A DNA stretch of 64,000 nt from the NCBI GenBank assembly GCA_037481835.1, contig JBBFKW010000002.1, positions 160,001-224,000 on the forward strand, in the 5' to 3' direction. Origin of the DNA: Desulfosoma sp. (GTDB lineage Bacteria > Desulfobacterota > Syntrophobacteria > Syntrophobacterales > DSM-9756). The notes under the pieces are model-generated. The model saw nothing but the letters and a program-made list of their open reading frames with translations. It was not told where the DNA came from and searched no databases. Position 1 is the first letter of the stretch. Each line of letters begins with the position of its first letter. Positions 1 to 18,526 of this stretch are shown here, piece after piece. The translations under genes were made by a program, and so were the position numbers.

Positions 1-37
1 CATCCCATGCCGTTCGCGAAGCATCGCGGCTTTTGGC

Positions 38-66
38 TTGACAGGGATCGTGGCCTTGGGTAAGGA
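38..66 (+). promoter_or_regulatory. Putative sigma70 promoter for the leader/paaK operon
   Basis: TTGACA at 38-43, 17-nt spacer, TAAGGA at 61-66 (weak -10). Confidence 0.5.
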
Positions 67-132
67 ACCGTTCTGAACACAGGATACGGCCACGATCCGG
101 GAATTGGAGCTCACTCAAAAAGCGGCGCGGCG

Positions 133-219
133 ATGATGACGCGGTTCTTTCGTTTCTACTTTATCGGCGAAAAGGGGGGCTTCTTTTTTAGGAAGTCTAC
201 CCATGGCCGAGCGGGGTAG
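133..219 (+). CDS. Phe-rich attenuator leader peptide, 28 aa: MMTRFFRFYFIGEKGGFFFRKSTHGRAG
   Basis: Translated by hand from ATG133 to TAG217-219; 7 Phe and 1 Tyr in two clusters; overlaps the antiterminator arm. No strong SD visible. Confidence 0.8.
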   Translation: MMTRFFRFYFIGEKGGFFFRKSTHGRAG

Positions 220-276
220 GCGAAAGGAGCCGGTCGCACAGCCCCGCTCAAGCGGGATAACCAGCCATGGGTAGAC
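195..276 (+). promoter_or_regulatory. Antiterminator hairpin of the attenuator
   Basis: gtctacccatggc (195-207) is the exact reverse complement of gccatgggtagac (264-276); gagcgggg (209-216) pairs with ccccgctc (242-249). Confidence 0.8.
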
Positions 277-305
277 GAGATCGGAACCCATGGCTTTTCG
301 TTTTT
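263..305 (+). terminator. Attenuator terminator 1
   Basis: 10-bp stem agccatgggt (263-272)/acccatggct (286-295) followed by tttcgttttt. Confidence 0.8.
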
Positions 306-346
306 AGAGGCCGTGGGTTCGTGGAACCGACGGCCTTTGCGTTTTT
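306..346 (+). terminator. Attenuator terminator 2
   Basis: Stem aggccgt-g-ggttc (308-320)/gaacc-g-acggcct (324-336), 3-nt loop, followed by ttgcgttttt. Confidence 0.75.
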
Positions 347-400
347 GGCGGACACACTCCCCCAAACTACGGCTCCCTCACACAAAGGAGGAACGATGCG

Positions 401-1702
401 ATGATCTACGACATGGAATATGAAACCCTACCCCGCGAGGCCCTGGAGGCCATTCAACTCAGAAGACTCCAGAACACGCTCCAACGCGTCTATGCCACGG
501 TTCCCTTTTACAGGAAACGGTTCGACGAAGTGGGGTTCAAACCCTCGGAACTGAAATCCCTTGACGATTTGCGGCGCGTGCCGTTCACCACCAAGCAGGA
601 TCTTCGGGACAACTACCCTTTCGGGCTTTTTGCCGTGCCCATGGAAAACGTGGTCCGCATTCACGCCTCGTCGGGTACCACCGGTAAACCCACGGTGGTT
701 GGCTACACGGCCCGGGACATCGAGACCTGGGCGACTCTCATGGCCCGGTCCCTTTCCGCCGCCGGAGCCACTCGAGGCGACATCATCCATAACGCCTACG
801 GGTACGGTTTGTTCACGGGGGGGTTGGGCGTCCACTACGGTGCGGAAAAGCTGGGCGCCTCGGTCATTCCCATCTCCGGGGGAAACACCAAGCGGCAGAT
901 CATGATCATGAAGGATTTCGGCGCCACGATCCTCACCTGCACACCGTCCTACGCCCTGCACTTGGCGGAAGTTGCCCAGGAGATGGGGGTGGAGTTCAAG
1001 GACCTGAAATTTAAGGCGGGTCTTTTTGGAGCCGAGCCTTGGTCCGAGAGGATGCGGGAGGAGATCGAAAGGAAGCTTCATTTGGACGCCGTGGACATTT
1101 ACGGGCTGAGTGAAGTCATCGGGCCCGGCGTTGCGGTGGAGTGCCTGGAAGCCAAAGCGGGACTCCATATCTTCGAAGATCATTTCATTGCCGAAATCAT
1201 CGATCCGGCAACGGGAGAAGTTTTGCCTCCGGGATCCGTGGGCGAACTCGTCTTCACCTCCATCACCAAGGAAGCCTTTCCCGTCATCCGTTACCGCACG
1301 CGGGACATCACGAGCCTGAACCCCGAACCGTGCGTGTGCGGCCGGACCTTCGTGCGCATGAACCGCGTGAGCGGCCGAAGCGACGACATGCTCATCATCC
1401 GGGGCGTCAACGTGTTCCCGTCCCAGATCGAAAGCGTTCTCATGGAGATTCAAGGGGTCGAGCCCCACTACCAGCTCATCGTGGACCGGGAAGGGAACCT
1501 GGATATGCTCACGGTCCTTGTGGAAGTCGGGGAATCGGCCTTTTCCGACAAGGTGAAGACCCTCCAAGACCTTGAAAAGGTGATCACCAAGAACATCAAG
1601 GAATACCTTGGAATTTCGGCCAAGGTGAAACTGGTGGAACCCAAGACGATCGCCCGCAGCGAAGGCAAAGCGGTTCGGGTGATCGATAACAGAAAACTTT
1701 AA
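401..1702 (+). CDS. paaK: Phenylacetate-CoA ligase
   Basis: [11 protein letters not shown]-loop, DIYGLSE, RYRTRD and C-terminal SEGKAVRV motifs; SD aaggagg upstream. Confidence 0.92.
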
Positions 1703-1733
1703 CGCGGGCTTCGCACAAGAAAGGAGGCCGAGG

Positions 1734-2165
1734 ATGCGCGTGGAACAGATTTCGGTCTTTTTGGAAAACAAGGCGGGACGTCTCGCCGAAGTGACCCGGG
1801 TCTTGTCGGAAGCGGGGGTGAACATCCGAGCCTTGTCCCTTGCCGACACGTCGGATTTCGGGATTCTACGCCTCATCGTCAACGATAACGAAAAGGCCAA
1901 GGAGGCCCTCAAGGCCAACGGCTTTACAGTCGGAAAGACCGACGTCGTGGCGGTGGAAGTGGAAGACCGCCCCGGGGGGCTCCACAAGATTCTGGACATC
2001 CTCCGAAAGGCCGGCATCAACGTGGAGTACATGTACGCCTTCGTGCAGCAGAGCGGGAACAACGCCGTGATCATCTTCCGATTCGACAACTTGGACGAGG
2101 CGGTCCGCGTTCTTACGGAAAACGGCGTGACGGTCATCAACGGAAGCCGGGTTTACAGCATGTAG
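1734..2165 (+). CDS. Tandem ACT-domain amino-acid-binding protein
   Basis: [13 protein letters not shown] and [12 protein letters not shown] signatures; typical partner of paaK; SD aggagg. Confidence 0.9.
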
Positions 2166-2257
2166 CGGGTGGCTCCGGCGGGCCGGATGCCGCTCGGTCA
2201 CGGCACCGGGGCGGCCCGCCGGATGGATGAACATGGACCAAGACAGGAGGAAGGGCG

Positions 2258-3418
2258 ATGGAAAGAAGGGCAAGACCGTGGATCTTCTGGATGGCGGCCG
2301 TGGCGGCGGTTCTGGGACTTGTGGTCGGGCCGAAGGCGGCTTTCAGCGCCGAGCCTTACAAGATCGGAGGCGTTTTTTCCATCACCGGCTCTTCCTCTTT
2401 TCTCGGGGATCCCGAGAAGAAAAGCCTGGAGATGGCCGTCGATGAGATCAACGCCCAGGGGGGGATCGACGGCCGGCCGTTGGAGGCCGTCGTCTACGAC
2501 ACGGAAGGGGATCCCACGAAAGCCGTGCTGGCGGTCAACAAGCTGATCAGCAAGGATAACGTCGTGGCCATTATCGGGCCCAGCCTGACCCCCACGACCT
2601 TGGCGGTCATGCCCATTGTGGAGCGGGTCCAGATGCCGCTCATCAGCTGTGCGGCCGGGATCCAAATCGTGGAACCCGTCAAGCCCTACGTTTTCAAGAC
2701 GGCCCAGAGCGACGTCCTGGCTGTGGCCGCCATCTACAAGCACATGCAGAAGCACGGCATCAAGAAAATCGGGATTCTCACGGTGACCAACGCCTTCGGG
2801 GTGAGCGGTCGGGATCAGCTGGTCAAGCAGGCCCCGGATTACGGCATTCAGATCGTCAAGGAAGAGGCCTACGGGGCCGGCGACACGGACATGACGGCGC
2901 AATTGACGAAGATCAAAGGGGAAAATCCCGATGCCGTCGTGTGCTGGGGGACCAATCCGGGGCCGGCCGTGGTGGCCAAGAACATGCGCCAGTTGGGCTT
3001 TAACGCACCCCTGTACCAAAGCCACGGGGTCGCCTCGCCCAAGTTCATCGAACTGGCGGGGGAAGCGGCTGAAGGCATTCGGCTTCCCACGGGAAAGATT
3101 CTCGTGGCGGACCTTTTGCCCGACATGGACCCCCAGAAGGCCGTCCTGAAAAAATACATTGTCGACTTTAACCAGCGCTACGGCGGCGGGGTTTCGGGCT
3201 TCGGCGGTTACGCCTACGACGCCATGCACATCCTTGCCAAGGCGCTCAAGGGAACCGGCGGCGATAAGGCCAAGATTCGGGACAACCTGGAAAAGATCGC
3301 CAACCATGTGGGTATCAGCGGAATTTTCACCATGACGGCCAAGGACCACAACGGTTTGGGGCCCGAGGCTTTCGTCATGGTGGAAATCCGAAACGGCACG
3401 TGGAAACTGCTGGACTAG
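2258..3418 (+). CDS. Liv-type ABC transporter substrate-binding protein
   Basis: Signal peptide; EINAQGGIDGRPLE..YD and IIGP motifs of periplasmic binding protein type 1. Confidence 0.9.
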   Translation: MERRARPWIFWMAAVAAVLGLVVGPKAAFSAEPYKIGGVFSITGSSSFLGDPEKKSLEMAVDEINAQGGIDGRPLEAVVYDTEGDPTKAVLAVNKLISKDNVVAIIGPSLTPTTLAVMPIVERVQMPLISCAAGIQIVEPVKPYVFKTAQSDVLAVAAIYKHMQKHGIKKIGILTVTNAFGVSGRDQLVKQAPDYGIQIVKEEAYGAGDTDMTAQLTKIKGENPDAVVCWGTNPGPAVVAKNMRQLGFNAPLYQSHGVASPKFIELAGEAAEGIRLPTGKILVADLLPDMDPQKAVLKKYIVDFNQRYGGGVSGFGGYAYDAMHILAKALKGTGGDKAKIRDNLEKIANHVGISGIFTMTAKDHNGLGPEAFVMVEIRNGTWKLLD

Positions 3419-3436
3419 AGGGGATAGGCCGTCTTC

Positions 3437-4315
3437 ATGAGCGAATTCCTGCAGTTTCTCCTCACGGGGATCACCACCGGGGCGATCTACGGCCTGATCG
3501 CCCTGGGGTTCAACGTGCTCTACAACGCCACGGATTTGATCAACTTCGCCCAGGGCGAATTCGTCATGCTGGGCGGCCTGTGCTTCTATTCGCTGGGGTC
3601 GGCTCTTGGATGGCCTGCGGCCGCGGCTTTCGCCGCCGCCGTCTGCATCGTCTCCCTGTTGGGGCTGCTGCTGGAAAGGGTGGCGCTGCGCCCGGTCAAG
3701 AAACCGGAACCTCTCACCCTCATCATCATCACCGTGGGAGCGAGCATTTTCCTTCGGGGTGTGGCCATGCGGCTGTGGGGCAAGGACCCGTACAGCGTCC
3801 CGGGGCTCACGGCGTCCGTGGAGCCCGTTCGGATCTGGGGCGCGGCGCTCATGCCCCAGAGCTTGTGGATCGTGGGCATCGTTGTCGCTTTCATGACGGG
3901 TTTGCACCTTTTCGGCAAACGCACCTTGACCGGCAAGGCCATGGAGGCCTGTGCCATTCACCGCAACGCCGCCTGGATCCTGGGCATTCCCAGCGATCGC
4001 ATGGTGCTTTTGGCCTTCGCCTTGAGCGCCGGGCTGGGGGCTGTGGGGGGGGTGATCATCGCCCCCATTACCATGTGCAGCTACGATATGGGCACCATGC
4101 TGGGCCTGAAGGGCTTTTGCGCGGCCATGTTGGGAGGCTTGGGCAGCCACTGGGGGGCGGCGCTGGGCGGCGTGCTCCTCGGTGTGCTGGAATCCCTCGG
4201 GGTGGGCTATTTTTCCTCCGGCATCAAGGACGCCGTCGCCTTTCTCGTGCTCCTGGTGATCCTCATCGTGCGACCCGCCGGCCTTCTCGGGGCCTCTGCG
4301 GTGAAGCGTTTTTAG
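3437..4315 (+). CDS. livH: Liv-type ABC permease
   Basis: GAIYGLIALGF, INFAQGEF and GFCAAMLGGLG motifs. Confidence 0.9.
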   Translation: MSEFLQFLLTGITTGAIYGLIALGFNVLYNATDLINFAQGEFVMLGGLCFYSLGSALGWPAAAAFAAAVCIVSLLGLLLERVALRPVKKPEPLTLIIITVGASIFLRGVAMRLWGKDPYSVPGLTASVEPVRIWGAALMPQSLWIVGIVVAFMTGLHLFGKRTLTGKAMEACAIHRNAAWILGIPSDRMVLLAFALSAGLGAVGGVIIAPITMCSYDMGTMLGLKGFCAAMLGGLGSHWGAALGGVLLGVLESLGVGYFSSGIKDAVAFLVLLVILIVRPAGLLGASAVKRF

Positions 4316-4334
4316 GCGGGGGAAAGGAGGGGCG

Positions 4335-5291
4335 GTGGGTTCTCGACAGAGGCTGTACGGGACTGCGATTTTTTCCCTGGGAATGGCGGCGCTCGGCGTG
4401 GCGGTGTCCAACCCCTATGAACAGCAGTTGCTGACCATTATCGGCATCCACACCCTGTTGGCTCTGGGCCTGAACATGCTCATGGGCTATGCGGGCCAGA
4501 TTTCCCTGGGCCATGCCGCCTTTTTCGGCCTGGGCGCCTACGGCACGGGCATTCTCACCACCCACTTTCAATGGTCCCCGTGGGCGTCTTTGCCCGCCGT
4601 GCTCGTATTCGCCGCCCTCTCGGGCTACCTCATCGGCCGTCCCATCCTTCGCCTTTCGGGGTATTACCTGGCCATGGGGACCCTCGGCCTGGGCATCATC
4701 GTCCATGTCCTCTTTCGAGAATGGGACACGTTCACCGGCGGGGCTTCGGGCCTGGTGGGCATTCCTCCCCTGAGCGTGGGGCGACTGATCGTGGGGCTCG
4801 GGCGAAGCGGCTTCTTCGCGGTGTGGGCGACCGTGGTCCTGTTTTTCGTCCTCTGCGGCCGAGTGGTGGATTCGCGCATCGGCCGCGCCCTGCGCGCCTT
4901 GGGGGACAGCCAGGGCGCTGCGGCCGCTTCCGGCATCCATACCGCCCATCTCAAGGCGGCCATTTTTTCCTTCAGCGCCGTCATGGCGGCACTGGCCGGG
5001 TACCTCTACGCCCATCTTCTGGGATTTATCAGCCCCAGTTCTTTCGATTTTCTCATGTCCATCCGCATGGTCACCATGGTGGTCATCGGCGGTATGGCCA
5101 GCATTTGGGGTTCCCTTCTCGGCGCCTCGGTCATCACTCTCCTCCCCGAATGGCTCCACGTATTTTCCGATTACGAAATGATGGTCTACGGATTGATCCT
5201 CATGGGAGTCATGATTTTTCTGCCCCAGGGGCTCACGCGAGGGGTCCTGGATGCCCTCCAGCGCGCCCGGGCGCGAACGGCTTCTTCGTAG
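4335..5291 (+). CDS. livM: Liv-type ABC permease
   Basis: GYAGQISLGHAAFFGLGAY and LRLSGYYLAMGT motifs; GTG start after aaggagg. Confidence 0.9.
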   Translation: MGSRQRLYGTAIFSLGMAALGVAVSNPYEQQLLTIIGIHTLLALGLNMLMGYAGQISLGHAAFFGLGAYGTGILTTHFQWSPWASLPAVLVFAALSGYLIGRPILRLSGYYLAMGTLGLGIIVHVLFREWDTFTGGASGLVGIPPLSVGRLIVGLGRSGFFAVWATVVLFFVLCGRVVDSRIGRALRALGDSQGAAAASGIHTAHLKAAIFSFSAVMAALAGYLYAHLLGFISPSSFDFLMSIRMVTMVVIGGMASIWGSLLGASVITLLPEWLHVFSDYEMMVYGLILMGVMIFLPQGLTRGVLDALQRARARTASS

Positions 5292-5318
5292 AAGCGAAGG
5301 GGGAAGGAGACAAGGTTT

Positions 5319-6092
5319 TTGAGCGGCCTCAACCCATTTCTGACCATCGACGGCGTCTCCAAGGCCTTCGGGGGCATCCAAGCCCTCTATCAGGTCTCCT
5401 TCGCAGTGCAGGCGCGGCACATCCATGCCCTGATCGGCCCCAACGGGGCGGGAAAGACGACTCTTTTCAACGTGATCTCAGGGGCCTTCGCGCCCGATGA
5501 GGGTTCCATCCGGCTGGACGGCAAAGACATTCAGGGGCGTCCCATGCATGAGCTCGTGCGGCGAGGCATCGCGCGCACCTTCCAGAACGTGGAGCTTTTC
5601 GGGAGCATGAGCGTTTTGGAAAACGTTCTTGTGGGATGCCACACTCGCACACGTTGTGGGCTCATCGGGGCCATGGTGCGATGGCCGTGGGTTTCCCGCG
5701 AGGAACGCTGGGCTCGAGAACGCGCCATGGAACTCCTAAACATGGTGGGCCTTGCAGACTCGGCCATGAAAAGAGCCGTGGACCTTCCCTTCGGGTGGCA
5801 GCGCCTTGTGGAAATCGCCCGGGCCTTGGCCGGCGATCCCAAGCTCTTGCTTCTGGACGAGCCCGCTGCGGGACTCAATGCCGTGGAAACCGAAAGGCTG
5901 TCCCGGCTCATTCAAGAGATTCAAGCCCTTGGCGTTACGGTCCTCCTGGTCGAACACGACATGAACCTCACCATGGACATTTCCGACCGCATCGTGGTCC
6001 TGGACCGCGGCCGAAAGCTTGCGGAAGGAACGCCTCGGGAAATCCAATCCAGCGACGCGGTCATGGAAGCCTACTTGGGAAAGAAACACTGA
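5319..6092 (+). CDS. livG: Liv-type ABC ATPase
   Basis: GPNGAGKTT, IARTFQN, LLLLDEPAAG and VEHDM motifs; TTG start. Confidence 0.9.
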   Translation: MSGLNPFLTIDGVSKAFGGIQALYQVSFAVQARHIHALIGPNGAGKTTLFNVISGAFAPDEGSIRLDGKDIQGRPMHELVRRGIARTFQNVELFGSMSVLENVLVGCHTRTRCGLIGAMVRWPWVSREERWARERAMELLNMVGLADSAMKRAVDLPFGWQRLVEIARALAGDPKLLLLDEPAAGLNAVETERLSRLIQEIQALGVTVLLVEHDMNLTMDISDRIVVLDRGRKLAEGTPREIQSSDAVMEAYLGKKH

Positions 6093-6114
6093 GAGGGGAG
6101 GGGTCCGCCGACCC

Positions 6115-6861
6115 ATGCTGATCGTTCGCAATCTTCGGGCTGGCTACGGCCGCATCGAGGCGCTCCACGGGGTGAGTCTTTCCGTGAGGCACGGGGAAAT
6201 CGTGGCCATCGTGGGGGCCAACGGGGCGGGAAAGAGCACCCTGTTGCGGGCCGTTGCGGGGTTGATCGTGCCGTGGCAGGGAGAGGTTCTCTTTGAGGAG
6301 CGGTCCCTTGCGGGGACGAAACCGCCGGCGATCGTCGCCGCGGGAATCGGCTTGGTCCCGGAAGGGCGCTGGTTGTTCCCCCCCATGAGCGTCCTGGACA
6401 ATCTCCGCCTGGGGGCTTACTTGAGGCTGCGCCGCGGCGAAAAAGAGGCCGTGCGGGAGGACTTGGAGCGCGTCTTTGAGCTCTTTCCCATTCTCGCCGA
6501 ACGCCGAAAACAGCCGGCGGGGTCCCTTTCCGGCGGCGAGCAGCAGATGCTGGCCATTGCCCGAGCCCTTATGAGCCGCCCCAAGATGCTTCTGCTCGAC
6601 GAACCGTCCACGGGCCTAGCCCCGCTCCTCGTGGAAAAGATCTTTGAAACCATCGTCCAGCTCAACGGGGAAGGGATCACCTTCCTCCTCGTAGAACAGA
6701 ACGCCCGGGCGGCTTTGGCCGTGGCGAGCCGCGGTTACGTCCTGGAAACCGGCCGGATGGTCCTCCAGGGAAAGGCGGGGGACCTCCTCGAGGATCAAGA
6801 AGTGAAGCGAGCCTACCTGGGTAAGGACTATCGTGAGTTTGCGGAAGGGAGGGCCCGATGA
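6115..6861 (+). CDS. livF: Liv-type ABC ATPase
   Basis: GANGAGKST, LSGGEQQM and VEQN motifs; start taken at ATG6115 (MLIVRNL). Confidence 0.9.
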   Translation: MLIVRNLRAGYGRIEALHGVSLSVRHGEIVAIVGANGAGKSTLLRAVAGLIVPWQGEVLFEERSLAGTKPPAIVAAGIGLVPEGRWLFPPMSVLDNLRLGAYLRLRRGEKEAVREDLERVFELFPILAERRKQPAGSLSGGEQQMLAIARALMSRPKMLLLDEPSTGLAPLLVEKIFETIVQLNGEGITFLLVEQNARAALAVASRGYVLETGRMVLQGKAGDLLEDQEVKRAYLGKDYREFAEGRAR

Positions 6862-8132
6862 GCGATGCAGGAAACGGCAACGGGGAATGGCTGCCGCCGG
6901 CGGAACGGCGCCAGCAACAGCTGGAGCGGCTCCAGATTGTGTGCAATCGCGCGTACAAGAACGTGCCGTTTTACCGGAATCGGTTTCAGGCGGCGGCCCT
7001 TTCCCCTCAGGACATCGGCAGCCTGGAAGACGTTCGGCGCCTGCCTTTTACGGAACGCCGCCACTTCGGCGAACATTACCCCTACGGGCTTTTTGCCGTG
7101 CCGTTACGGGACATCGTGCGCATCCACACGGCGCCGGGCATCGGCGGCAGTCTGGCGGTGAGCGGCTACACGGCCCGGGACCTGAAGATGTGGAAGGAGA
7201 TGGTTGCTCGAGCCCTGAGGGCGGCCGGGGTCTCAGTGGACGATATCCTCCAAATCGTCCTCCATCCCGGGTTGGCCAACTGGGGCCGGGATTACAAGGA
7301 CGGCGCCGAGGCGCTTCAGGCGGGCGTCATCCCCCTGAATGCCCTGCACCTGAGCAAACAGATCATGGTTCTGCGGGACTACAAGACCTCCGTGCTCATC
7401 ACCACGCCGACTTCGGCCGTCCAAATCCAGGAACTCTTGTTTTCCTCGGACATCAATCCCAACGAACTTTCTCTGAAGACCCTGATTCTCGTCGGGGAGC
7501 CGGCGTCACAGGAGCTGCGCCGCAGGATCGAGGAGCAGCTGCACGTGCGCACATGGCAGCATTACGGGTTGAGCGAGGTGCCCGGGCCGGCGGTGGCCTA
7601 TGAGTGCGAAGGGCACGATGGGCTTCATGTGTCCGAAGACCATTTCCTCGTGGAGGTGCTGGATCCGATAACCCTTGAGCCCGTACCCGAGGGAGAAAGC
7701 GGCGAATTGGTCCTCACGAGTCTCACCATCCAGGCATTCCCTCTCATTCGGTTCCGCACCGGAGACCGGGTGAGGGTCCTTGCCGAGGGCTGCCCGTGCG
7801 GGAGGACCCTGAGGCGGCTGGAGTGGCTTCCCGACCGGGTGGACGACCTCCTTGTCATTCAGGGGGTGAAGATTGACAAGGACCAGGTTGCCGTTCGAGT
7901 GGCCCAGACGCTCGGGTTTGCTCCCCGGAAGCTCTCGGTGCACCTTGTCCGGCAAGGCGGCTACAAGGCTCTGGAAGTGCAGTTGGGCATGGAAGAAAAC
8001 CTCTTCAGCGACGAGATCAAGGAATTGGAGCGGCTCGTTCGAAAGACGGCCTTCGAGCTCCGGCAGGAATTCGGCGTTCCGGTGGAAGTGCGCCTCCTGG
8101 AGGGCCCCAGCGTGGAGGCGGCTTTCCCATGA
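6858..8132 (+). CDS. Divergent phenylacetate-CoA ligase paralog, possibly catalytically inactive
   Basis: Colinear with 401..1702 (YPYGLFAVP, IVRIH, YGLSE, IRFRTGD), but the P-loop is replaced by TAPGIGGS and the C-terminal GKA is missing; ATGA overlap with livF. Confidence 0.8.
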   Translation: MSDAGNGNGEWLPPAERRQQQLERLQIVCNRAYKNVPFYRNRFQAAALSPQDIGSLEDVRRLPFTERRHFGEHYPYGLFAVPLRDIVRIHTAPGIGGSLAVSGYTARDLKMWKEMVARALRAAGVSVDDILQIVLHPGLANWGRDYKDGAEALQAGVIPLNALHLSKQIMVLRDYKTSVLITTPTSAVQIQELLFSSDINPNELSLKTLILVGEPASQELRRRIEEQLHVRTWQHYGLSEVPGPAVAYECEGHDGLHVSEDHFLVEVLDPITLEPVPEGESGELVLTSLTIQAFPLIRFRTGDRVRVLAEGCPCGRTLRRLEWLPDRVDDLLVIQGVKIDKDQVAVRVAQTLGFAPRKLSVHLVRQGGYKALEVQLGMEENLFSDEIKELERLVRKTAFELRQEFGVPVEVRLLEGPSVEAAFP

Positions 8133-8197: not shown

Positions 8198-8297
8198 ACC
8201 TGCACAAACAGCGCAGGACGAGCGCCCATGGAAGTTGGTGTCCCTATGCATGATCACAAAAGCCGGCATTTTTGCAAACCATGGAGGACAGCGGTCT

Positions 8298-9212
8298 ATG
8301 GATGTTTTGGTCGTAGGAACGGGCGCCATCGGCGGCTACTACGGAGGCCGGCTGGCTCAAGCTGGGGCGAGGGTCTCCGTGGTGGCCCGTTCGGACTACG
8401 AGGTCGTGGCTGAAGACGGGATTCGCATTGAAAGCCCGGCGGGCGATTTCCATTTTCGTCCCGATCGGGTGGTTCGAACCGCCGCGGCTTTCGGCGACTT
8501 TCCCGATGTGATTCTTGTGGGCCTGAAGGTTTTGGAAGAAATCCGCACGCCGGATCTGATTCGGGATGCCGTGGGGCCCAAGACCGCCGTCCTTCTCATC
8601 CAAAACGGGGTGGATATTGAACCTGCGGTGGCCGACGCCTTTCCCAACAATGAGATCCTGAGCGGGCTGGCGTTTATCTGCGTGCACCGCACGGCGCCGG
8701 GGAAAGTGCTGCACCAGGACTACGGCCGCCTGGTTCTCGGCCGGTACCCCGGCGGCCCCTCGGAGACAGCCCACAGGCTTGCCGAAATTTTTCGCCGGGC
8801 CGGGGTGCCGTGCGAAGTCACCGAAGACGTGGTCACGGCCCGATGGCAGAAACTGGTCTGGAACGCGCCCTTCAATCCCATGTCCGTGCTGTGCGGGGGG
8901 GCGAGCACCCAAGATATGCTCGCTCATGAAGAGACGACCCGCCTTGTGCGCGCGGTCATGGAAGAGGTGTGCGCCGTGGCGGCGGCGACGGGACATGCCC
9001 TTCCTCCGGACGTGGTGGATCGCATGATCTCCGACACGCGAAAGATGACCCCTTACAAGACAAGCATGCTCTTGGACTTCGAGGCGGGCCGCCCCATGGA
9101 AGTGGAAGCCATCGTGGGCAACGCCGTGCGCATCGCTCGGAGCCTTCACGTTCCGGTTCCCCACATGGAAACCCTGTATGCGCTTTTGAGCGGCTTGAAG
9201 GAACGGGCCTGA
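8298..9212 (+). CDS. panE: 2-dehydropantoate 2-reductase family
   Basis: VVGTGAIGG, IQNG, WQKLVWN, TSMLLD and MEVEAI motifs; start at ATG8298. Confidence 0.85.
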   Translation: MDVLVVGTGAIGGYYGGRLAQAGARVSVVARSDYEVVAEDGIRIESPAGDFHFRPDRVVRTAAAFGDFPDVILVGLKVLEEIRTPDLIRDAVGPKTAVLLIQNGVDIEPAVADAFPNNEILSGLAFICVHRTAPGKVLHQDYGRLVLGRYPGGPSETAHRLAEIFRRAGVPCEVTEDVVTARWQKLVWNAPFNPMSVLCGGASTQDMLAHEETTRLVRAVMEEVCAVAAATGHALPPDVVDRMISDTRKMTPYKTSMLLDFEAGRPMEVEAIVGNAVRIARSLHVPVPHMETLYALLSGLKERA

Positions 9213-14012: not shown

Positions 14013-14738
14013 GTGAACGCAAGATCCATGAGATCCCTCCAAAACATCCTGGCCTATCGATTTCGAAACCTCCACGTGCTTCGGCAGGCCTTGATCCATC
14101 GGTCCTACTCCCACGAAAACCCCAGAGAAAGGCGCGGTGACAATGAACGGTTGGAATTCCTCGGCGATGTGGTCCTGAGCCTTACCATTTCCCACATGCT
14201 CTTGGAAAAGTTTCCCGATGCGGACGAAGGCACCCTGTCGCGCATGCGGGCGTCCTTGGTCAACGAAGAGCAGCTCGCCCGGATCGCCGGAAACCTGGGT
14301 CTGGGCGAATTGCTCCTTCTCGGCAAAGGGGAGGAACTTTCCGGGGGCCGCACGAAGCCGTCCATTCTGGCCGACGCCGTGGAAGCACTCCTCGGGGCCG
14401 TCTATTGGGACGGCGGGCTGGAGCCGGCCCTGGCGATTGTGCGGCGGTTTTTTCAGGCCAAACTGGCGCAGGCCGAAACAGACGAGGACCCTCTGCGCCG
14501 TCTGGACAAGGACTTCAAAACCCAGTTACAGGAAGTCTCACAGGCTCGGATGCGTCTCGTGCCCCAGTACGAGGTGGAGCGGGAAGAAGGGCCCGACCAC
14601 GACAAGACCTTTTACATTGCGGTGAGCCTTGCCGGTCGGGTCATCGCCCGAGGGGCGGGCAAGAGCAAGAAAGCCGCCGAACAGGCCGCGGCCCGGGAAG
14701 CCCTGGCCCTTCTCGAAAGCGATCAAGGAAAACCATGA
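14013..14738 (+). CDS. rnc: Ribonuclease III
   Basis: NERLEFLGD signature, ADAVEA, C-terminal dsRBD (DFKTQLQE, GPDH, SKKAAEQAAA). Confidence 0.95.
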   Translation: MNARSMRSLQNILAYRFRNLHVLRQALIHRSYSHENPRERRGDNERLEFLGDVVLSLTISHMLLEKFPDADEGTLSRMRASLVNEEQLARIAGNLGLGELLLLGKGEELSGGRTKPSILADAVEALLGAVYWDGGLEPALAIVRRFFQAKLAQAETDEDPLRRLDKDFKTQLQEVSQARMRLVPQYEVEREEGPDHDKTFYIAVSLAGRVIARGAGKSKKAAEQAAAREALALLESDQGKP

Positions 14739-17700
14739 GTGAAGAACAAGGATTCCGGAAATACCCGGTCGGACTCATCGTTGCCTGTGTGGCGGCCGTT
14801 GCGGCCGTCGCCCTCGGCGGCTTAAAGTTTTTGCAAACCCATCAAAAATCCCAGGAGCGGGAGGCGGAACACTACCTGCTCACCATCGCTCAGCAGAAGG
14901 AAGCCCAGCTCGCCGCCTGGATTCGCGACCAGAAGGAAGACGCCCTGGCGCTCCAGGAGTCGCTGATCTTCGCGGCTCACGCCTATTCGGTCCTGGAAAG
15001 CCCCGAAAGCCCCGTCTCCAAGACCTTGGAAAATTTCGTGCACTACGTCGCCGTAAGTCACGAGGTCGATGATGTGCTGCTGGTGGACCTGGCGGGCCGC
15101 GTGCGGTTTTCGCTACGGGGCACTCAAGAGATCCATGCAGAAGGTCAGGCTGCCCTTGCCGAAGCCATGCGAAACGTTCGGCCCGTCATGACCGATATCC
15201 ACGCGGATCCGAGGACCGGGGACGGCTGCGTGGGCGTCGCCATCCCCGTGAAGGTCCCCTTAAGCGACCCGCCCAGGGCCGCCGGGGGAGCCCTCCTCGT
15301 CACCAAGGCGTCCCGGTTCATGGATCCTCTGATGGAGTCATGGCCCGTGCCGAGCCGAACGGGGGAAGCCCTGCTGGTGCGCCGGGAAGGCGAGAATGTC
15401 CTTTACCTCAACGCCCTGCGCAGCCGCCCCGACAGCGCCCTGAAACTGCGGGTTCCCCTGAGCCGGGCCGATCTTCCCGAGGTCATGGCCGCGCGAGGAC
15501 AAACGGGGGTGGTTCGAGGCACGGATGAGCGTGGCGTCCCGGTGACGGCGGCCATCGTTCCCGTGGAAGGGACGTCGTGGTTCTTGGTGGCCAAGGTGGA
15601 TCGCGCGGAACTGGACGAGGACAATCGGATCCTTTCCGTCTCCATGGGATTGCATTGGATCGGGTTTGCCGCGCTCCTCGTTTTCGTGGTGATCTGGGCA
15701 AGGCAGAGGGCCCGGAAAGAACAGTTCCGCCGCCTCTTTCAGGCGGAATCGGAGCTGCGCAAGACCCTGGTGCGACACGCCGTCGTCCTCGAGGCCATGG
15801 AAGATGCGGTGATCGTCACGGACGCCCGTGGCTTTGTGGAACTGTGCAACCCGGCGGCCGAAAGGCTCACCTGCTGGACGGCCGGCGAAGCCAAAGGAAA
15901 GCCCCTGAAAGACGTTTTTCCCATAGAAGGGGAACCGGGGAAGGAAATCGTCCAGGATCCCGTTTCCTTTGTTCGTGCACGGGTTCGTGAAGGAAGTTTC
16001 AGAGACACCGTTGTGCTGCGCACGCGGGACGGGCGCCGAAAGCCCGTTTCGGTTAGCGTCAGCCTGCTGCGGGAGGCTTCGGGCACCGTAACCGGGGCGA
16101 TCCTGTGCTGTCGGGACCAGAGCGAAGAATTCGTGCGGCGGCGCATCTTGGAAATTCGCCTGGGCTTCATGGAGCGATCCCACGCGGTTCCCCTGGAGGA
16201 GGCCCTTTCCGAAACCCTGGATGCCGTGGGCGATCTCCTGGAAAGTCCCGTGGGATTTTACGCTTCCATAGCGCCGAACGGAGAGGGCATAGAAGCCCGT
16301 TTTGGGTCCTCCGGCGCAGCCCGGGGCTTTTGCCCAGGCGGGGCCCAGAAAGGTCATGAAAGCCTTGAGAAAGACGGCCTGTGGGCCCAAGCCGCCCAAG
16401 AGAAAAGACCGATCATCCTCAACGACGATGCCGAGGGGGCTTTGCGGGGCAGACTGCCTCAAGGACATGGGCCGGTGCAAAGAATCATCGTGGTTCCCGT
16501 GGTACGAGACGGAACCGCCCGAGCGCTCCTTGCTCTGGCGAACAAAGAGACCGCCTATACCGATGAAGACGCCGCCACCCTGGGCCTCGTGGCCGACATG
16601 ATCCAGCAGGTGGTGGAGCACCGCCAGGCCGAAGAGAGGCTGAGGCAGAGTGAAGCGCGCTATAAGAGCCTGTTTCGGGACCACAAGGCCGTAAAGCTTC
16701 TCATCGATCCGGAAGACGGGAGCATCGTGGACGCCAATCAGGCTGCCGTGGAATTCTACGGCTGGTCCCACGAAGAACTCACCCGAATGAAGATCCAGCA
16801 GATCAACACCCTGCCCCCCGAGGCCGTCAAGGAGCGAATCGCCGAGGTGAAGGGGCGGCGTCGCGTGCCTTTTGAATTTCAACATCGGCGGGCCGACGGT
16901 TCCGTAAGAGATGTGGAGGTTTACAGCAGCCGCATCGATGTGAATGGAAAACCCTTCCTGCATTCCATCGTTCACGACGTCACCGCGAGGAAGCGGATGG
17001 AAGCCGAGCGTGAGCGGTGGCTTACGGCCATCGAACAGGCCGGCGAAGTGGTCCTCATCACGGATGCGGAGGGCATCATCCAATATGTGAACCCGGCCTT
17101 CGAGGCTGTGACGGGCTACAAGAGGGAAGAGGCCGTCGGGCGAAAACCGGCGATCCTGAAAAGCGGCGTCCAGGAAGAGGCGTTTTATAGAGAGTTGTGG
17201 GATAGGCTGCGATCCGGCAAGAAATGGACGGGCCGCATGGTCAACAGGAAGAAAGACGGCACCCTGTACACGGAGGAAGCCACCATCTCGCCCGTCAAGG
17301 ACGCCCAGGGAAACATCGTGAACTATGTGGCCGTCATGCGCGACATTACGGAAAAACTGCAGCTGGAGCAGCAGTTCCATCAAGCCCAGAAGATGGAGTC
17401 GGTCGGCCGATTGGCAGGCGGGGTCGCCCACGATTACAATAACAGCCTGACCATTATCCTGGGCTTTGCGGATCTGGCGCTTAAAGAGATCCCTCCGGAC
17501 AGCCCGGCCGCCCGTCATATCCACGAGATCATCCAGGCTGCAAACCGTTCTGTGGCCATTACGCGGCAGTTGCTCGCCTTCGCCCGCAAACAGATCATCG
17601 AACCCGTGATCATGGACCTTAACGTGTCCGTGGAATCGACCCTGAAGATGCTCCGGCGCCTCATCGGCGAAGACATCGAGCTCGTGTGGAAGCCGGGACC

Positions 17701-18526
17701 CAACCTGTGGAAGGTCAAGATGGATCCGGCCCAGCTGGATCAAATTTTGGCGAACCTCTGCGTCAACGCCCGAGATGCCATCGGCGGGGTGGGGACCATC
17801 ACGCTGGAGACGGAAAACGCGGTATTGAGCGAGGAATACTGCGCGGGGCGTGCCGAGTTCGTCCCGGGGGAGTATGTCATGCTGGCGGTGACGGACACCG
17901 GCTGCGGCATGGACAAAGAGACCCTGGGCAAGATTTTCGAACCCTTCTTCACCACGAAAGAAATCGGCAAGGGAACCGGCCTGGGCCTGGCCACGGTGTA
18001 CGGCATCGTGCGTCAAAACCGCGGGTTTATCAACGTCTACAGCGAACCCGGGGTGGGCACCACTTTTAAGATTTACATCCCCCGAGAACCTGAGGCCGAG
18101 ACGGATCACACGGAGAAGCTCCAGGATGCCGGCGAGGTGCCTCGTGGCCGAGGGGAGACGATCCTTTTGGTGGAAGATGACCTCATCTTGCTGGAAATGA
18201 CTCGGATCTTGCTCACCCAACTGGGTTATACCGTGCTCGAGGCCGCAAGCCCCCAGGATGCGGCGGCTTTGGCCCGAAGCCACGAAGGCCCCATCCATGC
18301 GCTCATGACCGATGTGATCATGCCCGGGATGAACGGCAAAGAGTTGGCGGACCTTGTGCGGGAACTGAGGCCCGGCATCCGGGTGCTGTTCATGTCGGGA
18401 TACACGGCGAATGTGATCGCCCATCACGGGGTGCTGGACCCCGGCGTCGCCTTCATTCAGAAACCTTTTGGCCTTTGGGATCTCGCGTCGCGAATCCGCC
18501 AGGTGCTGGACGGCGCGACGGCATGA
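14735..18526 (+). CDS. Membrane hybrid histidine kinase (2 TM, PAS/GAF/PAS/PAS, HisKA-HATPase, receiver)
   Basis: GVAHDYNN H-box, VNARDA, DTGCG, GTGLGL, C-terminal LLVEDD..TDVIMP..QKPF; ATGA overlap with the rnc stop. Confidence 0.9.

Follow-up and report, generated by a model that had tools for sequence, protein, structure and literature searches.

Which signal decides whether RNA polymerase enters an operon for PaaK-type phenylacetate-CoA ligases and a Liv-type ABC importer in Desulfosoma sp., and what does the cell use this operon for? The question is raised by the first 400 nucleotides (nt) of the window, i.e., of the whole stretch of 64,000 nt that was analysed (positions 160,001 to 224,000 of contig JBBFKW010000002.1, assembly GCA_037481835.1; C2:160001-224000 of genome G000 in our own numbering), and coordinates given below without a contig are positions in this window. 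A short open reading frame (ORF) rich in phenylalanine (Phe) codons is followed there by two hairpins with U tracts (T1 and T2) and then by the first paaK gene. We consider it likely that this element is a ribosome-mediated leader-peptide transcription attenuator which senses the supply of Phe-tRNA. Conservation, covariation, the match between leader codons and pathways, and fold modelling all point to this reading, from which termination, translation of the leader, and a response to Phe are predicted.

The phenylalanine leader and its conservation

The leader ORF can start at ATG133 or ATG136, and 7 of its 28 codons encode Phe (145-150, 154-156, 160-162, and 181-189) and one tyrosine (Tyr; 157-159). 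Its stop codon lies directly 3' of segment 2, the 5' arm of a predicted antiterminator. Six segments can be distinguished in the RNA, and all five complementarities of a six-segment relay are present, i.e., 1:2, 3:4 (T1), and 5:6 (T2) on one side versus 2:3 and 4:5 on the other (Table 1). In an inverted-repeat search of the window sequence, 195-207 of segment 2 and 264-276 of segment 3 are 100% complementary over 13 nt, the expected number of perfect inverted repeats of this length in 260 nt being about 5x10^-4 (about 3x10^4 arm pairs x 4^-13). A further 8 base pairs, 209-216 (GAGCGGGG) with 242-249 (CCCCGCTC), extend the helix in the sequence as well as in the constrained fold; in the alignment, this extension sits in an insert restricted to the four genomes of this genus, and 243-256 can fold into a small linker hairpin that is likewise seen only in this genus. 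RNA 100-400 as a whole folds with a z of -5.4 relative to 100 shuffles. An earlier note, made from the letters of the window alone, had described the 28-codon upstream ORF with its Phe and Tyr codons, both stretches of complementarity, and an intrinsic terminator at 263-305, and all of these were recovered. It had assumed a single terminator; T1 stands, and what had been overlooked are hairpin 1:2, the second U-tract hairpin T2, and the complementarity 4:5, which together give a his-like layout of six segments.

According to the mechanism that we propose, transcription from near position 73 would run into this six-segment leader. Without translation, hairpin 1:2, T1, and T2 would form and RNA polymerase would terminate. 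With ample Phe-tRNA, the ribosome would reach the stop codon TAG (217-219) and cover 195-216, so that T1 and T2 form and transcription stops. When Phe-tRNA is scarce, the ribosome would stall with F17 or F18 (181-186) in the A site, melt hairpin 1:2, and leave 195-216 free. Segment 2 could then pair with segment 3 over both parts of the helix (195-207/264-276 and 209-216/242-249), blocking T1, and the freed 3' arm of T1 (284-294) could pair with the 5' arm of T2 (310-320) and hinder T2. Polymerase would then read into paaK-ACT-livKHMGF-paaK2.

Relatives were searched by DNA in 60 genomes (8 of the window's family, 46 of family f3, and 6 of family f2). Leader DNA lies directly 5' of the paaK orthologue in 15 of them, comprising 8/8 genomes of the window's family, 7/46 of f3, and 0/6 of f2, and one more weak match, in G060, does not adjoin paaK. 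These 15 leaders, collected without a motif, form together with the window's own a core alignment of 16. All 16 contain a frame rich in Phe, such as MDNRFFRFRFFGFFGGFFFRKSAHGRGR or MIFRFFCFCFYGFWGGFYFSKPACGAK, and each keeps the FFF or FYF run; insertions and deletions within the frame measure 3, 6, or 9 nt only. The position of the stop codon relative to segment 2 is the same in 15 of the 16 leaders, the exception, G029, having a 9-nt in-frame insertion just before the stop. On visual inspection, a purine-rich Shine-Dalgarno site 4-8 nt 5' of the start was recognised in 10 or more of the 16.

Both alternative foldings are conserved in the core alignment. The helices of the OFF state (1:2, T1, and T2) are paired in 96.6% of cells, compared with 23-55% in slid-partner controls, and 7 pairs are changed on both sides; those of the ON state (2:3 and 4:5) are paired in 95.8% of cells, compared with 31-42% in slid controls, with 5 pairs changed on both sides. 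For the individual helices, 6-8 of the 8 pairs of hairpin 1:2 (94.5% of cells paired), 12-13 of the 13 pairs of 195-207/264-276 in helix 2:3 (97.5%), and 8-11 of the 11 pairs of helix 4:5 (93.6%) are kept in all 16 leaders. The stem of T1 is paired in 97.5% of cells. T2 occurs in every leader and its outer 6 pairs are 97.9% paired. Three pairs each are changed on both sides in helix 2:3, in the T1 stem, and in the outer part of T2.

A wider set of 52 loci was obtained by an exact-motif scan of GTDB species genomes that required segments 3, 4, and 5. A paaK orthologue (73-97% identity) is situated just 3' of the motif in 45 of these loci, the closest named carriers being an uncultured Desulfosoma metagenome-assembled genome (MAG; paaK 97.5% identical), Desulfacinum infernum, D. 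hydrothermale, Desulforhabdus sp. TSK, and many Syntrophobacteraceae MAGs. Three loci carry the same scaffold 5' of a gene for DAHP synthase (MAGs assigned to Syntrophaceae, Syntrophales, and 'Pseudomonadota'); two of their leaders, L034 and L044, mix codons for Phe, Tyr, and tryptophan (Trp) (..NFWFSYFYYF.. and ..VYFYFWRYYY..), and the third locus, L070, is too short for its leader to be read. The remaining four look like chance matches (Bacteroidales, Spirochaetales, Polyangiaceae, and Saccharospirillum). Among the residues encoded by the 48 unique paaK leaders, Phe accounts for 350 of 1331 (26%), Tyr for 50, and Trp for 34. The search for Phe-rich upstream ORFs and covarying stems 5' of paaK orthologues, which the earlier note had proposed as a check, thus gave leaders in 15 of the 60 relatives and at 45 of the 52 motif loci, with covariation of both foldings in the core alignment.

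The effect of ribosome position was modelled at equilibrium, allowing only RNA 3' of the ribosome to fold, free from A-site +11. For the window, the probability of T1, P(T1), is at least 0.94 when codons 1-8 or 10-11 occupy the A site, 0.71 for codon 9, and about 0.55 for codon 12; it falls to 0.00 at codons 13-18 (E K G G F F), is about 0.55 for codon 19 (F), and at least 0.94 for codons 20-29, i.e., up to the stop. The model predicts the antiterminator for a ribosome stalled on F17 or F18, and termination for a ribosome at the stop codon or for RNA free of ribosomes. The claim that stalling at the Phe codons would free the antiterminator therefore narrows to F17, F18, and partly F19 (181-189), an effect of the first cluster (145-162) alone not being predicted. 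By analogy with trp, where a polymerase pause at the leader hairpin is known, the role of the first cluster may be confined to delaying the ribosome, or the cluster may operate in concert with polymerase pausing at hairpin 1:2. A range of A-site codons predicted to give the ON state exists in 35 of the 48 unique leaders, and in 28 of these 35 the range ends on its 3' side with an aromatic codon. Across the 48 leaders, aromatic residues occupy 137 of 272 codons inside the ON range compared with 297 of 1059 outside it.

Related leaders in the genome and the proposed role of the operon

A leader profile was run over the contigs of the same genome and, with follow-up reading, six more leaders were obtained, whose downstream genes were assigned by Pfam and NCBIfam (Table 1). 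Five of the seven leaders of the genome have the tandem-terminator layout. The Tyr leader on contig C21 is kept as YYYGYGY or GYYYYGY in 7 of the 9 genomes of the family, the window's own counted. The Trp leader on C7, in which distal leader sequence and the terminator's 5' arm are complementary to each other, had been missed by the profile search; Liv-type permease genes lie, by eye, 3' of its iorA and iorB. In the four classical cases the enriched codon fits the pathway encoded downstream, which favours the same interpretation for the Phe, Tyr, and Trp leaders 5' of paaK, ior, and importer operons. Since Tyr and Trp leaders precede importer, paaK, and iorAB genes, and Trp, Tyr, and leucine (Leu) leaders precede biosynthetic genes, the paaK operon seems to be regulated like a supply operon. 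A paaK and transporter operon had been judged an atypical target for such a leader, and with these neighbours in the same genome it is a less odd one. A mobile terminator as the source of the shared CCRTGGG motif was considered and rejected, hairpin-plus-T sites of this type in the genome numbering only 17. The Trp leader on C6 is overlapped by a sub-threshold match to Rfam ar14 (27.3 bits, gathering score 58.8).

An attenuation layout of this kind switches genes on when charged tRNA is scarce, and therefore the operon should supply Phe. It would import Phe, phenylacetate, or both, PaaK would convert phenylacetate into its CoA ester, and an indolepyruvate-type ferredoxin oxidoreductase (IOR), encoded elsewhere in the genome, would reductively carboxylate the CoA ester to phenylpyruvate. 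Of the two IOR alpha genes present, one exceeds the TIGR03336 cut-off with 728.9 bits and the other narrowly misses it with 641.5 bits, and the two IOR loci lie behind the Tyr and Trp leaders and adjoin importer and paaK genes. As far as the available text of the citing article goes, aryl acids feed aromatic amino acid synthesis via IOR in Methanococcus maripaludis (Porat et al., cited in PMC4162585). The genome encodes pheA and tyrA, and thus the salvage of Phe would be an additional route. The pheA gene (chorismate mutase/prephenate dehydratase, C3:93-2209) is situated directly 3' of a 331-aa ORF at the start of its contig. A route of import (Phe and/or phenylacetate), CoA-ester formation through PaaK, and reductive carboxylation would explain the gene content most economically, and we take a role of the operon in salvage to be reasonably probable.

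Extended to the other leaders, this would mean a separate aryl-acid salvage module for every aromatic amino acid, controlled by that amino acid via a dedicated leader-peptide attenuator, mostly of one his-like double-terminator design. The modules would consist of a Liv-type importer together with a PaaK-type ligase and/or IOR, i.e., paaK-ACT-liv-paaK behind the Phe leader, liv-paaK-iorAB behind the Tyr leader, and iorAB behind the Trp leader with liv-like permease genes downstream (by eye). The paaK and ior genes have a catabolic appearance; in this scheme they would form an anabolic regulon, induced by starvation, in which aryl-acetates are reductively carboxylated to yield Phe, Tyr, and Trp, and the relay from T1 to T2 would give termination control in two stages. 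We advance this wider scheme tentatively, with slightly more doubt than belief. From the codons of a leader one can read for which amino acid the cell regards the operon as a source, and this provides regulatory evidence for a participation of PaaK, Liv importers, and IOR in the supply of aromatic amino acids and not only in degradation. The resulting map from codons to operons aids the annotation of a gene cluster that is very common in anaerobes and ambiguous.

The genes at 401-8132 are encoded on one strand with short gaps, an arrangement which suggests one operon. Upstream, a gene on the same strand ends 51 nt before the window. The putative promoter, whose position suggests a transcription start near 73, was not among the hits of a strict sigma-70 consensus scan. 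An 11-nt perfect inverted repeat (45-55/90-100, GGATCGTGGCC/GGCCACGATCC) spans the promoter spacer and the early transcript; as an operator it was rejected, since among the four genus members G003 retains it in part and G001 and G002 do not retain it. Within the conserved CCATGG of segment 3 begins, at an ATG, an ORF (267-404, MGRRDRNPW...) with no Shine-Dalgarno site, whose recurrence in relatives reflects only the conservation of the RNA and which is probably not a gene. Two genes 3' of the operon, one 2-dehydropantoate 2-reductase-like (8235-9212) and one encoding a 1373-aa multi-PAS hybrid histidine kinase (14405-18526), have no evident link to the attenuator.

Table 1. Features of the Phe leader and its putative operon in the window, and of related leaders on contigs (C) of the same genome.
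Feature	Position	Strand	Description and basis
Putative promoter	38-43, 61-66	+	TTGACA, 17-nt spacer, TAAGGA; from sequence; both hexamers unchanged or almost unchanged across the 4 genomes of the genus
Leader ORF	133-219	+	28 codons, stop TAG 217-219; MMTRFFRFYFIGEKGGFFFRKSTHGRAG; sequence and ORF list
First aromatic codon cluster	145-162	+	F F R F Y F; Phe-rich in relatives despite nucleotide differences
Hairpin 1:2	178-185 / 190-197	+	Loop 186-189; minimum free energy folds; contains FFF codons 181-189, sequesters start of segment 2
Segment 2	195-216	+	Antiterminator 5' arm; within last 8 codons of leader ORF
Segment 3	242-249 + 264-276	+	Antiterminator 3' arm; also T1 5' arm (263-272)
Predicted terminator T1	263-305	+	G+C-rich stem 263-272 / 286-295, 10 nt, 100% complementary; 13-nt loop; tail TTTTCGTTTTT; in all unconstrained folds
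Segment 4	284-294	+	T1 3' arm; alternative partner 310-320 (segment 5), 11 nt with one G-U; forms in ON-state folds
Predicted terminator T2	308-346	+	G+C-rich stem 308-320 / 324-336, one G-G mismatch; 3-nt loop; tail TTTGCGTTTTT; inverted-repeat search
Shine-Dalgarno	385-391	+	AAGGAGG; precedes first gene
PaaK-type phenylacetate-CoA ligase	401-1702	+	TIGR02155 637.1 bits (just under cut-off 646.3); Pfam AMP-binding and AMP-binding_C_2
ACT-pair protein	1734-2165	+	Pfam/NCBIfam
LivK-like binding protein	2258-3418	+	Pfam/NCBIfam
LivH	3437-4315	+	Pfam/NCBIfam
LivM	4335-5291	+	Pfam/NCBIfam
Two ABC ATPases	5319-6092 and about 6019-6861	+	Pfam/NCBIfam
Second PaaK-like ligase	6858-8132	+	Pfam/NCBIfam
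Trp leader	C6:80308-80403 (element to 80515)	+	..HFWWCWWWC.., 5 Trp; T1 and T2; 5' of DAHP synthase (with FXD domain), trpE, trpG
Trp leader	C1:47831-47887 (element to 48015)	+	..RWSWWWQAW / ..ISIRWSWWWQAW, 5 Trp; T1 and T2; 5' of TrpB-like pyridoxal-phosphate enzyme (NF009057, 754 bits)
Tyr-rich leader	C8:71852-71766 (element to 71650)	-	..RRFYFYYGWYYG.. / MSIKGTARRFYFYYGWYYGPDGVGRPPR, 5 Tyr, 2 Phe, 1 Trp; T1 and T2; 5' of second DAHP synthase and TyrA-AroB fusion (prephenate dehydrogenase / 3-dehydroquinate synthase)
Tyr leader	C21:20584-20658 (element to 20775)	+	..SFYYGYGYL.. / MNGRVYSGDSFYYGYGYLRRSARR, 5 Tyr; T1 and T2; 5' of livK, H, M, G, F, paaK-like, iorA, iorB
Trp leader	C7:21322-21236 (element to 21190)	-	..LWRHGKWWC.. 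/ MTTGPSLWRHGKWWCGAKRSARPPRGRA, 3 Trp; one terminator; 5' of iorA, iorB
Leu-run leader	C1:162526-162639 (element to 162700)	+	..LSLLLLLS.. / ..LRGLSLLLLLSNG..; one terminator, CCATGGG type; 5' of LeuA (TIGR00973, 732.6 bits)

The predicted second terminator and competing explanations

U tracts were surveyed in 47 unique leaders, with at least 6 U in 9 taken as good and at most 4 U in 9 as poor. T1 has a good tract in 35 and a poor one in 9 of the 47 leaders, and T2 a good tract in 41 and a poor one in 3, all three of the latter being script artefacts. Nine poor-T1 leaders, eight of them within the set of 47, were examined and keep the leader ORF as well as 2:3 and 3:4, with 4:5 duplexes of -15 to -23 kcal/mol, and therefore regulation in these leaders would proceed only through T2. 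In the 9 poor-T1 leaders of the set of 47, T2 keeps a usable U tract; one of them is that of G001, which belongs to the same genus as the window. That helix 2:3 frees segment 4 to pair with segment 5, and that 5:6 is thereby hindered, seems to us somewhat more plausible than its denial.

Several observations weigh against one or another part of our interpretation. A simple promoter/terminator scan listed neither T1 nor T2, because the 13-nt loop of T1 and the internal mismatch of T2 fall outside the rules of the scanner. The window's leader is devoid of a Shine-Dalgarno site, there being no purine run within 20 nt of ATG133, and the earlier caveat about a weak site holds for the window. The ON range predicted for the window does not include the first Phe cluster. 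At equilibrium, 13 of the 48 unique leaders have no ON range, nor does any of the three Tyr/Trp paralogues of the same genome that were modelled, so that only a kinetic switch could operate in these leaders. In attenuators such as trp, the terminator commonly exceeds the antiterminator in stability, and for this reason the missing range is not counted against the paralogues. The 52-locus set was selected by a motif of segments 3-5 and therefore cannot test the conservation of these segments, and its leader frame was picked by aromatic content, which biases the comparison of frames (347 TTY codons vs 179 and 155). With regard to the relay, the probability of helix 4:5, P(4:5), in the window is 0.22, 0.77, or 0.93 depending on the length of RNA allowed to fold, and only 7 of 47 leaders reach values above 0.5; the complementarity 4:5 could be a by-product of the origin of T2 as a duplicate of T1, the arms being similar and the tails 82% alike in the repeat search. 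With regard to salvage, importer ligands are putative, and so is the direction in which flux passes through PaaK and IOR.

The properties of helix 4:5 and of the two U-tract hairpins lead to the explanation that survives best next to the relay, namely that T1 is the sole regulated terminator, that T2 is an unregulated back-up or the leftover of a tandem duplication, and that the complementarity 4:5 is without function. The likeness of arms and tails is what a duplication predicts, T2 still forms in most leaders at equilibrium when segment 3 is blocked, as the few leaders with P(4:5) above 0.5 reflect, and 5 of the 16 core leaders have a 4:5 mismatch where 5:6 is compensated. However, if T2 were unregulated, it would set a ceiling on ON-state expression, and the leaders without a usable U tract in T1 keep the remainder of the switch. 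Segment 5 is nearly invariant in all 16 leaders of the core alignment, which are free of motif bias, whereas the loop-proximal part of T2 covaries freely, and the tandem layout recurs among the leaders of this genome. We regard a sole role of T1 as less probable than not, and continue to prefer control of both terminators.

A different objection concerns the sensor. The switch could be real and respond to a small ligand, an uncharged tRNA, or an RNA-binding protein, in which case the abundance of Phe codons in the frame would be incidental. The missing Shine-Dalgarno site of the window's leader and the leaders without an ON range at equilibrium would fit such a sensor, and the operon encodes an ACT-domain protein, a fold typical of amino-acid sensors. 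In contrast, cmscan of window positions 1-600 against Rfam 15 gave, at E up to 10, only 4 unrelated weak matches and no Phe_leader (RF01859), riboswitch, T-box, or protein-binding leader, and cmscan of three of the paralogous loci at E up to 1 gave no leader, riboswitch, or T-box family. Moreover, reading frame, stop position, and aromatic codons are kept while nucleotides change, and the seven leaders of this genome carry codons that fit their pathways, which a sensor independent of translation would not need. A sensor other than the ribosome is accordingly very improbable in our judgement.

An attenuator read by the ribosome might also work in the opposite sense, as a sensor of the TnaC type that acts through the nascent peptide or senses free Phe and that would, at high Phe levels, induce an operon for phenylacetate/Phe catabolism. 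The breakdown of phenylacetate is the best-known context of PaaK, and the earlier note had judged the target atypical for an attenuator induced by starvation. The layout, however, is that of biosynthetic operons, with the stop codon at the antiterminator arm, so that an unhindered ribosome favours termination; the same scaffold is found 5' of DAHP synthase and trp genes; and the operon contains no paa genes for ring oxidation, only the ACT protein, the ABC importer, and a second ligase. Induction by abundant Phe is, in our opinion, very improbable. Finally, short ORFs are common in any sequence, but a chance coincidence of RNA structure between genes and a fortuitous T-rich ORF can be dismissed as practically negligible, being contradicted by conservation in 48 unique leaders, by covariation in all helices, and by the fixed geometry 5' of one gene family. 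Starvation-induced attenuation by a ribosome that reads Phe codons, as claimed in the earlier note, has thus gained support from comparative sequence analysis and from modelling.

Comparison with known attenuators

No description of this RNA element was found in the full-text literature, older work in subscription journals being beyond the reach of the search, and the available parts of PMC545781, PMC1173090, PMC2965389, and PMC4833913 do not describe it. Leader-peptide attenuation is textbook knowledge and the mechanism itself is unsurprising; what is added is a conserved RNA family that is absent from Rfam 15. Its members constitute a natural series, with two U-tract hairpins joined by a candidate relay and with the U tract of T1 lost in some species, in which relayed attenuators can be put to the test.

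Among attenuators of the Phe type, the leader-peptide attenuator of pheM-pheST belongs with that of pheL-pheA. With pheL-pheA of Gammaproteobacteria, as far as it is portrayed in the available portion of the source, the element shares a short ORF with runs of Phe codons, a ribosome position which decides between terminator and antiterminator, and the predicted upregulation on shortage of Phe-tRNA (RF01859, PMC3082878). In contrast to that partial account of pheL, with about 15 codons, the window's leader comprises 28 codons, six segments, and two U-tract hairpins, and there is no match in sequence or structure. The targets differ from pheA and pheST as well, consisting of a PaaK-type ligase, an ACT protein, and a Liv-type ABC importer, and the lineage is that of the Syntrophobacterales.

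In its layout, the element resembles the his attenuator, whose C:D hairpin is the counterpart of 3:4 here. The accessible text on the Salmonella and E. coli his attenuator describes a relay of alternating hairpins, with A:B and E:F formed in the OFF state, B:C and D:E formed with a stalled ribosome, and termination of untranslated RNA (PMC4046918). Unlike in that account of his, the middle hairpin (3:4) has a U tract in 35 of 47 members of the window's family, so that two terminators are arranged in series, and the regulatory codons are Phe codons split into two clusters, with no relation in sequence. With trpL of E. coli and rnTrpL of Sinorhizobium, as covered by the excerpts available, the element has in common an attenuation that depends on the ribosome and a pause or anti-antiterminator hairpin that contains the regulatory codons, and Trp leaders of the same design stand 5' of the DAHP synthase-trpEG and TrpB-like genes of this genome; compared with trpL so described, the amino acid and the RNA family are different. 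Most likely, the element combines a his-like layout with a pheL-like function, i.e., a classical ribosome-mediated mechanism in a previously undescribed RNA family and in front of a previously undescribed target.

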